Virus record (IMG/VR): IMGVR_UViG_3300020330_000002
Coordinates: 1 to 25,098 of that record
DNA length: 25,098 bases
Reading direction: 5' to 3' (one strand)
Source of the DNA: a virus
Taxonomy: Duplodnaviria; Caudoviricetes
Part shown: piece by piece, positions 14,979 through 24,454 of the stretch
How the letters are laid out: every line of letters starts with the position of its first letter
How positions within the stretch are numbered: the stretch's first letter is position 1
Program-made: the position numbers and the translations under genes
The notes under the pieces: generated by a model
The model's database searches: none
Seen by the model: only the letters and a program-made list of their open reading frames with translations
What the model was told of the DNA's origin: nothing

Positions 14979-15208
14979 TCGGCAAGCTCCTCAAACACGG
15001 TGCCCCAACAGTCCCCGCAGATATACCCGAAGCCGTTGCGGGCACCCATCACCAGTTCACGCTCAGCCGACGACAAGGCAGGAAACAGATCCTGAACCAG
15101 CCCCTCCCTGAGCACAAACCTATTCCACGCCGCCGTCGGCACGCCACCCGCCAGGTGCCGCTCCTCGCCGCAGGGGCCGCAAGTAGCCCTGATCTCACTA
15201 CCCTTCAT
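14975..15208 (-). CDS. Small zinc-finger protein, 77 aa
   Basis: CGPC...VQDLFPALSSAERELVMG...CGDCW; overlaps both neighbours. Confidence 0.75.
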   Translation of the reverse strand: MKGSEIRATCGPCGEERHLAGGVPTAAWNRFVLREGLVQDLFPALSSAERELVMGARNGFGYICGDCWGTVFEELAE

Positions 15209-16259
15209 CCATCTCTCCTATCTGTTCGAGCAGCCACCCGTATGCGGCTGCCGCCTGTTGCGGGACAACACCGTTGCCCAACATCTTCAACTCCTGGGAG
15301 CGGGACAAGCCCGCACCTGTCACCCACCCATCAGGCAGACCCATCATCCACTCCACGAACCGTGACGACAGCTTGCTGTCGGTCACTGGGGCGGGGGCGC
15401 ATCGTCCACTCGCCCACTCCCATCGGGCGATGGCGTCGGCATAGTCTCCCCACCCAACTTGGCTGCCACCACGTTCAGGGGATCTGAGTTTCTGTTCCAC
15501 TGGGACGGACCCGCATTGTTCGCCCCGTCCTGGGCTGTCGGCGTCGGCAACAGACGCTGCACCTCTATCGACAGGGACTTGCCGTGCCCGTTGCCGTTGC
15601 GATGCTTCTCCCTCTGCTCCGCCGTCCACGCATCCCACTTCTCCACCGTCTTGCCCGCCCCCATGTCGTTCACCACAGGCGTAGGCAACAGATGGGGTAT
15701 GTCCCACAGGTTCGCCCCCATCTTCGAGTTGCGATGCACGTCGGGCGTCACCCCATGCTTCGCTGCCTGCGCCGTCGGCGTGGGCAACTGCGAACCATCG
15801 GTCGCGCCTATGACAGGCACCCACAGACTGGTCGGCTCGAACACATGCCCACTCCGCATCGAAGCCTCCTTCGGCCAACGCATCGAGGACTTGCCCGAAG
15901 GCATCACCCTGGTTGGCGGTGAGCAAACCCCGCACGTTCTCCAAGAACAACCACTGTGCGCCTGCTCGTCTTGCCACAGAGACGACATCTCTAATCAACC
16001 ACCTTTCATCATCTATACCTGCCCGCCTCCCAGCATGGGACACGGGTTGACACGGGAACCCTGCCGTGATCGCATCCACCTGCGGTGGATCGGCGATCTC
16101 GGTCAGGTCACCCAAGTTCGGTACCCCGAACCGTGCATCCAACACGGCAGAGGCATGCTTGTCTGTCTCAGCCACCCACACCAGGTCGGTGTCGATGCCT
16201 GCCAGTTGCAGCCCTAGTTCAAGGCCGCCGTACCCTGCACACAGGGCGCCAACCCGCAC
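15198..16259 (-). CDS. DNA cytosine-C5 methyltransferase (catalytic chain)
   Basis: Motif I ALCAGYGG, IV GFPCQP, VI ENV, VIII HRRDRWF, IX/X FVEWMMGLPDGW..LGNGVVP; GTG start at 16259 overlaps the upstream TAG. Confidence 0.95.
   Translation of the reverse strand: MRVGALCAGYGGLELGLQLAGIDTDLVWVAETDKHASAVLDARFGVPNLGDLTEIADPPQVDAITAGFPCQPVSHAGRRAGIDDERWLIRDVVSVARRAGAQWLFLENVRGLLTANQGDAFGQVLDALAEGGFDAEWACVRADQSVGACHRRDRWFAVAHADGAGSEAWGDARRASQLEDGGEPVGHTPSVAYACGERHGGGQDGGEVGCVDGGAEGEASQRQRARQVPVDRGAASVADADSPGRGEQCGSVPVEQKLRSPERGGSQVGWGDYADAIARWEWASGRCAPAPVTDSKLSSRFVEWMMGLPDGWVTGAGLSRSQELKMLGNGVVPQQAAAAYGWLLEQIGEMDEG
15383..15988 (-). CDS. Overprinted alternative-frame ORF within the MTase with LPTP repeats; putative target-recognition (beta) subunit
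   Basis: 201-aa ORF on the same strand in a different frame; AAAGGTGG upstream of the ATG; LPTPTAQ/LLPTPVVND/LLPTPTAQD/MPTP repeats typical of phage C5-MTase variable regions. Confidence 0.75.
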   Translation of the reverse strand: MSSLWQDEQAHSGCSWRTCGVCSPPTRVMPSGKSSMRWPKEASMRSGHVFEPTSLWVPVIGATDGSQLPTPTAQAAKHGVTPDVHRNSKMGANLWDIPHLLPTPVVNDMGAGKTVEKWDAWTAEQREKHRNGNGHGKSLSIEVQRLLPTPTAQDGANNAGPSQWNRNSDPLNVVAAKLGGETMPTPSPDGSGRVDDAPPPQ

Positions 16260-19340: not shown

Positions 19341-19403
19341 TCATTTGGATTGTTGGTCGCTTCATTTGGATTGCTGGTCGCTTCATTTGGATTGCTGGTC
19401 GCT
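19341..19403. repeat. 21-bp tandem repeat x3 (TCATTTGGATTGYTGGTCGCT)
   Basis: Units at 19341-61, 19362-82 and 19383-403 with one mismatch in total. Confidence 0.97.
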
Positions 19404-22722: not shown

Positions 22723-22896
22723 ATGAGCACGATCACTAAGTTCGTTGTGGCCGTGACAGGCTTGTTGGTGGCGGTTGGTACGTTGATTGGAACGATTAGC
22801 ATGAATCTTGGTCGGTCATCGAAGCCTGAAGGGGTTACTATCATTTTGAATAGCCCTGAGGCGTATGCTGAGTTCCTTGCGGATCATCCTGGGTGA
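22723..22896 (+). CDS. Membrane peptide, 57 aa (MSTITKFVVAVTGLLVAVGTLIGTISM...)
   Basis: N-terminal TM helix; TGATG overlap with terL. Confidence 0.7.
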   Translation: MSTITKFVVAVTGLLVAVGTLIGTISMNLGRSSKPEGVTIILNSPEAYAEFLADHPG

Positions 22897-23783
22897 TGAG
22901 CCGTCTGGGTGAGCTGCGTCAGGAAGCGGAGTGGAGGAAGTGTGGAAGAGATGAGTCGTACTTCTTGCGTAAGTATTGGCATATTGCTCATCCTGCTCAT
23001 GGTCGAATTCTTTTTGATCTTCGGGATGCCCAGTCTTTCGCTTTGAGCCATTGGGCGGATAACCGTTATTCGTTGACGTTGAAGGCCCGTCAGATCGGGT
23101 GGTCTACGTTGGTGGCTGCTCACCAGTTTTGGTTGGCGTTTTTTCATGCGGATCAGAACATTATTGATTTGTCGCGTACTGAGCGTGAGGCTGTTCAGTT
23201 GTTGCGGAAGACGAAGTACGGGTTTAAGCATTTGCCTGGGTGGATGGTGGAGCGTGGCCCGAGGCAGCTTGTTGAGCATCAGCAACGCATGTTTTTCGGC
23301 AATGGTTCTCAGATTGTTTCGATGCCGTCTGCGTCTGATCCTGCGCGTGGTGAGTCCGCCACGCTTATCGTGGTGGACGAGTGGGCGTTTTTGCCGAATC
23401 CAGAGGAGGCGTGGTCCTCTATTGAACCTGTCGCTGACGTGGGTGGCCGTATTATTGGTTTGTCTACGGCGAATGGGTCGGGAAACTTTTTTCATCATTT
23501 GTGGACGGGGGCCAGCACGGGGAACAACAAGTTCGAGTCGATGTTTTTTCCGTGGTCTGCGACTGAGGATCGTGGCCCGTCTTGGTACGAGGAGAAGAAG
23601 CAGTCGATGCTGCCTTGGCAGTTGGCTCAGGAGTATCCGACTACGCCTGAGGAGGCGTTTGTGCGGTCGGGTAACCCTGTGTTCGATTTGGATGTGTTGG
23701 ACGACATGATGGTTCGTTGCCGCCCTGGGTTGTCGGGGTATTTGCATGAGTTATCGCCCAGGTCTGTAGAGTTCAGGTCGTGA
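22896..23783 (+). CDS. terL: Terminase large subunit, ATPase domain
   Basis: Walker A LKARQIGWS, Walker B LIVVDEWAF, coupling motif LSTANG, QEYP..PEEAF..SG. Confidence 0.95.
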   Translation: MSRLGELRQEAEWRKCGRDESYFLRKYWHIAHPAHGRILFDLRDAQSFALSHWADNRYSLTLKARQIGWSTLVAAHQFWLAFFHADQNIIDLSRTEREAVQLLRKTKYGFKHLPGWMVERGPRQLVEHQQRMFFGNGSQIVSMPSASDPARGESATLIVVDEWAFLPNPEEAWSSIEPVADVGGRIIGLSTANGSGNFFHHLWTGASTGNNKFESMFFPWSATEDRGPSWYEEKKQSMLPWQLAQEYPTTPEEAFVRSGNPVFDLDVLDDMMVRCRPGLSGYLHELSPRSVEFRS

Positions 23784-24454
23784 GTTTGGAGGTTTGGTGT
23801 AAGCCTGAGTCCAACCATGCTTACGTGTTGGGTGTTGATACGGCTGAGGGTTTGGGCCATGGCGATTATTCGTGCATCCAGGTGTTGGATGTGAGCACGG
23901 GCGATCAGGCGGCGATATGGCACGGCCATATTCCGCCTGACGAGCTGGCTGCTGAGGTGTTCAGGGTTGGTTTGTGGTATCGGGATGCGTTGTGCTGTGT
24001 GGAGTCGAACAATCATGGTTTGACGACGATTACGATGTTGCGCCAGTTGGGGTATCCTCGCATGTTTCGTAAGCGGTCGTTGAACCAGGTGACTTCCAAG
24101 GTGTCGATGGAGTTTGGTTGGCGGACGACACGCACGTCGAAGCCTTTGATGATTGACGATTTGGGGATGGCGTTGCGTAACGACGAGTTGCGTCTGTATG
24201 ACCGTCATACGGTCGGGGAGTTGCGGACCTTTACCCGCAATGAGCGTGGCAGCATGTCGGGGTCGCCCTATGACGACAGGGTGATGGCTTTGGCGTTGGC
24301 GAACCAGATGAGGAAGTACGCTCACGCCCCCGAGTATGTGGATCAGCCTGATGATTATTGGACAGTTGAGTGGTTTCGCAGGCTTGCCGTTGCCGATGAC
24401 GCTGATTCCTCCTTATACAGGATTGGTGCGAACAGCGTCCGTGGGACACCCTGA
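23780..24454 (+). CDS. terL: Terminase large subunit, RNase H-like nuclease domain (separate ORF)
   Basis: YVLGVDTAEG..DYS, VESNNHG, GW.TT..SKP, DDRVMALALA; GTGA overlap with the ATPase ORF. Confidence 0.93.
   Translation: MSLEVWCKPESNHAYVLGVDTAEGLGHGDYSCIQVLDVSTGDQAAIWHGHIPPDELAAEVFRVGLWYRDALCCVESNNHGLTTITMLRQLGYPRMFRKRSLNQVTSKVSMEFGWRTTRTSKPLMIDDLGMALRNDELRLYDRHTVGELRTFTRNERGSMSGSPYDDRVMALALANQMRKYAHAPEYVDQPDDYWTVEWFRRLAVADDADSSLYRIGANSVRGTP

Follow-up and report, generated by a model that had tools for sequence, protein, structure and literature searches.

A phage cytosine-5 methyltransferase gene coding in two frames, with putative target-recognition modules on a probable nested β chain

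The DNA analyzed here (the window) spans the 25,098 bases of a virus record and has matching DNA in marine metagenomes, and its methyltransferase gene is a real dual-coding gene, with both reading frames under selection. On the basis of sequence comparisons, we hold with moderate confidence that this gene gives rise to a two-chain DNA cytosine-5 methyltransferase (C5-MTase), in which an α chain is accompanied by a β chain carrying target-recognition modules. It is very likely that two chains are made, and the chance that the enzyme is multispecific is about even. Relative to the two-chain enzymes of the M.EcoHK31I and M.AquI kind, what we judge to be new is a β chain that appears to be modular and shuffled.

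By match, the gene products of the window include terminase, endolysin, primase, DnaB-like helicase, RusA and WhiB; the presence of WhiB, together with the finding that most bacterial relatives lie in Actinomycetota genomes, suggests an actinomycete host. The methyltransferase is the sole PF00145 match in the window, and no restriction enzyme was recognized among the 23 ORFs scanned. The 4-mer palindromes CGCG, AGCT and GGCC are depleted over the whole window (z of -6.6, -5.3 and -4.6, respectively), which fits restriction avoidance and is insufficient to assign methylation targets. Elsewhere in the window, the terminase large subunit appears to be split into two ORFs with a 4-nt overlap (22893-23783 and 23780-24454), which correspond by PHROG position to ATPase-like and nuclease-like parts, and coding tandem repeats with units of 42, 48 and 21 nt lie at 1-141, 388-497 and 19341-19403, in ORFs whose functions are unassigned.

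The two probable chains and selection on both frames

All features of the gene lie on the minus strand. The α chain (353 aa, 15198..16259) is recognized as a C5-MTase by the PF00145 profile, motif alignment and an AlphaFold model. Its ORF is open from 16280 to 15198, and the likely start is the GTG at 16259; this codon is preceded at 10 nt by GGAGG and shares bases with the stop of the gene upstream. PF00145 covers residues 10-170 only, and the motifs follow the order expected of C5-MTases: I (16224-16244), IV with PCQ (16047-16061) and VI with ENV (15933-15941), which together span 15933..16244; VIII, of the form RxR (HRRDRW, 15795..15812); and IX (15333-15371) and X (15264-15281), within 15264..15371, which were placed by alignment to M.HhaI 273-308 (with a weak domain score) and have high pLDDT. 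The AlphaFold model has the catalytic-domain fold, with Z of 25.3 and rmsd of 2.9 against M.HhaI over 235 aligned residues. Residues 171-272 (15465..15770), by contrast, form a predicted disordered loop under the β modules, with a hydrophobic fraction of 0.13 vs 0.31. As pLDDT is below 50 throughout this loop, α would be without a folded recognition domain of its own; none was found between motifs VIII and IX in the AlphaFold model, and sequence variation there tracks the other frame. The loop is predicted to be a shadow of the β modules that is kept open.

The β chain (201 aa, 15383..15988, matched by phrog_1008) is an ORF inside α in the +1 frame. The first-pass annotation had reported both ORFs, and their coordinates and frames proved correct on re-reading. 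It had also credited β with its own ATG and a ribosome-binding-like sequence, and indeed the Shine-Dalgarno-like AAAGGTGG (15999..16006), examined alongside the start contexts of 40 close loci, stands 10 nt ahead of the ATG, while an in-frame TGA at 15995-15997, three codons 5' of the ATG, shuts the β frame upstream. The β leader (residues 1-67, 15788..15988), which lies over α motifs VI-VIII and is distinguished by stop counts, codon fixation and its EcoHK31I-type register, is likely the part that binds α. M1, W16, W38, P58 and an aromatic residue at position 50 are invariant in 36/36 unique close leaders. A second candidate start, in which AAGGAGG is followed after 5 nt by the ATG of M44 (15857..15871), is the one used by database records of β (158 aa), and Met is present here in 30/36 leaders. 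Met codons at residues 29 and 36, as well as GTG/TTG codons, are further candidate starts. Searching 5' of the leader with a loose pattern and no null, we find a start codon in 55/55 and an SD-like word in 52, many at site -179. The GAT at the β start is not distinctive, since other Asp columns are equally fixed, and GAT at β +6 is not enriched in loci found with α (4/20). Just 5' of β, a mini-ORF in the β frame (MMKGG-stop, 15998-16012) marks the site at which β begins in some relatives (L014, L015 and L071), and may represent either a start that was lost or a means of coupling translation.

The match to phrog_1008 is split over two frames, with β residues 34-168 covering profile positions 99-215 and α residues 253-352 covering 207-319. 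No Pfam or NCBIfam family was found for β, a β profile had no real match among PDB sequences, and the ESM Atlas matches are to unnamed clusters only (score 0.95-0.96). Modeled alone, the β chain of one relative (L175, of class B as defined below) gave a low-confidence model (pTM of 0.27; Foldseek gave nothing under E 6), which for this reason counts neither for nor against a TRD fold. In the RNA run X20, a single 151-nt contig at 15836-15986 proves neither transcription nor translation.

The relatives sampled comprise 180 loci: 80 viral contigs found with α and 16 found with β, 5 annotated phages, and 79 metagenome loci found with β. Together with the window, these make 181 records, and removal of 17 without a motif VI-VIII anchor and of 30 duplicates leaves 134 loci. 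A separate bacterial set holds 50 loci found with α, of which 45 are anchored. In the 59 codons that lead up to the first module, the +1 frame of 55 representatives (<80% identical) contains 0 stops vs 122 expected under synonymous recoding, and the upstream control contains 153 vs 198 expected (54 representatives). The +1 leader is open in all 65 of the viral loci found with α (0 stops vs 60.4 expected, 34 representatives), and 0 stops compare with 70.8 expected in the bacterial loci found with α (n = 45); as the representatives are related, these counts and those for codons are not fully independent. Stops in the β frame of homologs, the warning sign named at first pass, are thus absent from the 55 viral-set, 34 α-found and 45 bacterial loci alike. 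Codons that are silent in α and needed by β recur above background, with GGG in 44/45 (background 19%), GCC in 41/41 (45%) and xTA in 25/45 (10%), 10 of the 55 representatives not being anchored for this test. Of the 45 compared, only the window lacks the conserved β glycine, and the β-required GGG is fixed in 41/41 of the bacterial loci found with α.

Within the modules, variation peaks at the β third codon position in 7/7 types; in α-only regions, it peaks at the α third position. The leader is relaxed in the window's close clade, where variation at third positions measures 0.209 in the overlap and 0.226 beyond it, and Pro39 of β is replaced by Leu in 6/36 unique close leaders. Under the modules of the window itself, there are 0 α-frame stops vs 7.1 expected (P = 0.00025) when the β protein is held fixed and codons are drawn from 12 window genes. 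In the window alone, neither the openness of the leader (P = 0.086) nor that of β under the α loop (P = 0.37) is significant; the case for β rests on relatives. The earlier observation that both frames are stop-free accordingly exceeds chance for α under the modules in the window and for the β leader in relatives. In classes A, B and D (47 representatives), α stops under the modules number 0 vs 144 expected (partly by class definition), and in the 4 class C loci, in which motifs IX and X are in β, 20 vs 17.1; the agreement with expectation in class C indicates that the α frame is kept open only where IX or X must be reached. Overprinting, as proposed at first pass, probably fits the leader and probably does not fit the modules.

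Modules and layouts among relatives

Beyond the leader, β carries three modules of different types: module 1 (type c, 33 aa, 15689..15787), module 2 (type a, 46 aa, 15551..15688) and module 3 (type b, 36 aa, 15443..15550), all of them putative target-recognition domains (TRDs). A tail beginning MPTP (15383..15442) lies over the structured WGDY helix of α and has 10 nt in common with the head of module 3, which in class B relatives stands immediately before motif IX. The three LPTPxxx repeats of the first-pass annotation survive as three LPTP-headed units; as copies of one repeat they were rejected, being different modules with only 9-13 identical residues per pair and a shared head of 12-15 nt. 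The terminal MPTP, previously counted as a further unit, covers the start of the α DYADA helix and opens a short tail rather than a full module, and it was rejected as a fourth module. The head of the first module, LPT, is the +1 reading of α VA(H/Y) just past motif VIII.

We resolve four layouts among the relatives, in numbers that mirror the search queries and not natural frequencies. In class A (87/134 loci, including the window), motifs IX and X are in α and the modules in β; class D (17/134) is arranged as class A with later modules in α; class B (12/134, plus 2 near-identical loci with an early α stop) has IX in β and X in α; class C (4/134) has both IX and X in β; and a further 12/134 loci are truncated. 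The bacterial set (n = 45) is made up of 29 class A, 6 class D, 6 class B and 2 class C loci, with one class A locus having an α stop and one truncated locus. The modules had been described as units normally found in-frame in single-chain enzymes, which does not hold here: α-frame modules occur in 17/134 loci, 15 of which also have a β module. One module type can occur in either chain, as module 2 of the window is in the α frame in L053 and module 3 in L101. Because the layouts differ only in the point of frame handover, single indels could interconvert all four.

Annotated records of relatives often show one gene only. The isolated Gordonia phage Baddon (gp4, L236:489-1559) has the window layout with an unannotated nested β, and phages Samy, Chickaboom and Colucci are class C relatives. 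One locus (L018) has two methyltransferases of this kind in tandem. Three skipped loci (L056, L062 and L070) have an α frame broken near motifs VI-VII, with α entering the β leader in L056 and L062, and are either pseudogenes or assembly errors. Finally, a dcm gene on a Listeria seeligeri plasmid (L233:832-2202) has a short unannotated +1 ORF over motifs VI-VIII, with TL-type tandem units, IX and X in α. The end of this ORF resembles what we take to be the usual post-VIII linker, and the locus suggests a fifth layout and an origin of β in an interdomain linker that moved into the +1 frame.

The first-pass suggestion that modules are exchanged between relatives is supported by sequence comparison, in which close relatives differ by gain, loss and reshuffling of modules. 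There are 18 different arrays among 35 complete close relatives, as typed by signature with unassigned modules pooled as one type, and the array differs in 25 of 35 pairs whose leaders are at least 97% identical. The loci have arrays of 1 to 8 modules, and database proteins contain up to 11 profile stretches. Contigs from public runs depart from the window sequence at the module heads 15539, 15702 and 15780 and, by our reading, continue into other module types. Contig joints, which are leads only given their short sides and <95% likeness, include a 99-nt skip over module 1 in one X11 contig and a skip of 177 in X16/X18.

The position of the modules between motifs VIII and IX, where the TRD of C5-MTases is located (excerpts of PMC5944983), leads us to infer with good confidence that they are TRDs. 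The last head is no more than 50 aa from motif IX in 11 of the 14 rows of class B, and in several class B loci one module is all the sequence between the leader and IX. The TL motif of such enzymes lies 10-50 residues ahead of motif IX and has the consensus PT(I/L/V)(T/A/S/V) (excerpts of PMC2413257). The module heads read L-P-T-P-T-A, with P at the I/L/V place in 99% of 254 modules, the T and P being partly set by the search pattern. Neither a PDB profile search nor Foldseek of the low-confidence L175 model matched the modules to a solved TRD in sequence or fold.

Comparison with known methyltransferases

The closest parallel to the overlap is M.EcoHK31I (YGGCCR), whose β is likewise nested in α in the +1 frame, begins between motifs IV and VI, and is open over VI-VIII. 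Its β is initiated separately, internal Met codons were able to rescue the enzyme, and deletion of the β N-terminus weakens association (excerpts of PMC2836561). Long same-strand dual coding with two functional products is rarely reported for prokaryotes, and the enzyme is presented as an exception (excerpts of PMC3404938). With a primer from PMC2836561, we found an EcoHK31I-type locus in 81/5,426 E. coli genomes and no true match on plasmids. The one locus fetched (L232:1531-2460) matches the β primer over 31 nt and encodes an α of 309 aa and, in +1, a β of 176 aa, with motif IX in β and the TL motif in α. It adjoins a NotI-family endonuclease and IS3 remnants, and its β is unannotated in the RefSeq record. 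Relative to motif VIII, its β ATG lies at -167 and that of the window at -173, a difference within 6 nt; the two leaders have the same register of W, G and an aromatic residue, and α reaches motif X in both. The division of parts is a mirror image, with IX in β and the TL motif in α there, whereas IX is in α and TRD-like modules are in β here, so that the contrast drawn at first pass, with IX in the main frame of the window, holds on the fetched locus. The EcoHK31I-type β is also without an LPTP array, and its gene is next to a restriction endonuclease, whereas none was recognized among the 23 window ORFs scanned.

Against the leader profile, the EcoHK31I-type β scores 17.3 bits vs 8.5 for the best of 1000 shuffles; in a second comparison it reaches 19.1 bits, and the shadow frame of a single-chain control 15.8. 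Among three ordinary dcm controls, the +1 frame has stops in two, one of which still scores 15.8 bits, and the leader is open in one. Since 19.1 bits is close to the 15.8 of a stop-containing control frame, the similarity of the EcoHK31I-type β is partly a shadow of α. Motif IX, which M.EcoHK31I has on β, is on α in the window and on β in the class B relatives (12/134). The window enzyme likely works like M.EcoHK31I and, by the placement of IX, is not a member of its type.

In M.AquI (CYCGRG), two chains are split in the variable region and the small chain holds its distal part (excerpts of PMC3404938), a division of parts equal to that of the class C relatives. Compared by description, β of M.AquI holds IX and X, whereas in the window both are in α and β is fully nested. 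An α that ends after VIII, with IX and X on β, is found only in class C, and not in the class A window.

M.SPR, M.phi3TI, M.rho11s, M.H2I and M.phiBssHII are single-chain enzymes that resemble the window enzyme in being phage orphan MTases with tandem variable units between motifs VIII and IX. In such Bacillus phage C5-MTases, several tandem TRDs lie between VIII and IX and are shuffled as cassettes (excerpts of PMC8936443 and PMC2413257). By DNA position, the window has tandem exchangeable units in the same place, on another chain. Again compared by description, the multispecific Bacillus phage TRDs center on the TL motif, whereas the window modules are LPTP-headed and lie on the other chain in the other frame. 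PHROG 1008, named "DNA methyltransferase", matches β, the α C-terminus and 80/94 β leader-plus-module rows; it differs in that class C phages have it annotated as a separate second gene, and the nested β is unannotated in Baddon. Within open-licence papers, we found no account of this phage family or of TRD modules in an overlapping frame, and the layout is not described in the excerpts of PMC11954522, PMC3025963, PMC10885494, PMC3091744 and PMC8788219.

Alternatives, mechanism and implications

An alternative route to the modules is a programmed +1 frameshift near motif VIII, which would fuse α(I-VIII) to them and leave the fusion either paired with full-length α or, in class C, as a single chain. 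We consider this quite unlikely. Although the first module head follows directly after motif VIII in +1, and one shift gives a canonical single chain in class C (4/134; 2/45 bacterial), ~50 codons of the +1 frame ahead of VIII have no stops and are under codon constraint, which a shift at VIII does not need, and start codons with SD-like words stand at its 5' end. There is also no homopolymer of at least 5 in 15988-15775 (one X_XXY_YYZ match is present), a fusion made in the window would be without IX and X, and the β of M.EcoHK31I is separately initiated (excerpts of PMC2836561). That two compensating indel errors made a single-chain gene look like this one is suggested only by the look of the frames, and its probability is next to negligible. 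None of 8 public sequencing runs has an indel listed over the methyltransferase stretch, which disposes of the compensating errors considered at first pass; two of the eight resemble one data set deposited twice, X7 is possibly the source of the window DNA, and in X7 and X6 the whole compared stretch is within one contig each. The same layout also recurs in 87/134 loci, in 29/45 bacterial loci and in the isolated phage Baddon, and assembly error was rejected on independent assemblies.

Two further possibilities accept the β frame and differ on its product. The modules might be structural spacers or host-interaction cassettes in a two-chain enzyme of single or relaxed specificity, as their non-canonical TL motif, the lack of a structural match to known TRDs, and array lengths that vary among the loci and database proteins would allow. 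This is unlikely given that α has no folded region able to be a TRD, that in class B a single module stands alone between leader and IX, and that the tandem TRDs of Bacillus phage enzymes are shuffled as cassettes in the same way (excerpts of PMC8936443). It is very improbable that only a shortened β from M44 is made in the window's clade, or that β is decaying there: the strong AAGGAGG ahead of M44 and the relaxed leader of the close clade point this way, whereas M1, W16, W38, P58 and the aromatic at 50 persist in 36/36 leaders and M44 in only 30/36, and module variation is in β phase.

In the two-chain reading that we prefer, a catalytic α and a separately initiated β would assemble into one DNA cytosine-5 methyltransferase. 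Translation of β would begin at its own ATG, and its leader would bind α as the N-terminal part of M.EcoHK31I β does. Each module would be able to dock where the TL-motif TRD lies next to motif IX. An array of several modules would confer more than one specificity, and its modules would be exchanged, with both frames preserved, by recombination at the 12-15 nt that their heads have in common. The enzyme's role is likely that of an orphan phage methylase shielding phage DNA against host restriction enzymes.

The design in which two chains come from one gene is proven in one E. coli enzyme, and the layout is common in the relatives examined here. A profile of the β leader and first module matches 24,396 clusters, nested or not, at 50% identity; at E 1e-10 the number is 13,879. 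Somewhat short of an even chance, and put forward tentatively, is the wider view of a very large phage and prophage C5-MTase family whose specificity resides on a separately translated, overlapping cassette chain, with modules that are shuffled via their 12-15 nt heads and hop chains by single frameshifts. Such an enzyme would be a combinatorial multispecific methylase. Its specificity might come from a chain acting in trans, comparable to the S subunit of a Type I system concealed within a Type II gene. If the two-chain reading is right, specificity prediction or cloning from the annotated ORF alone would miss the specificity chain, and the modules would be short DNA-recognition units that form a library of natural origin, mappable by swapping. 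The four layouts would then record a gene moving domains between frames, and phages would gain a quick means to retune their anti-restriction methylation.
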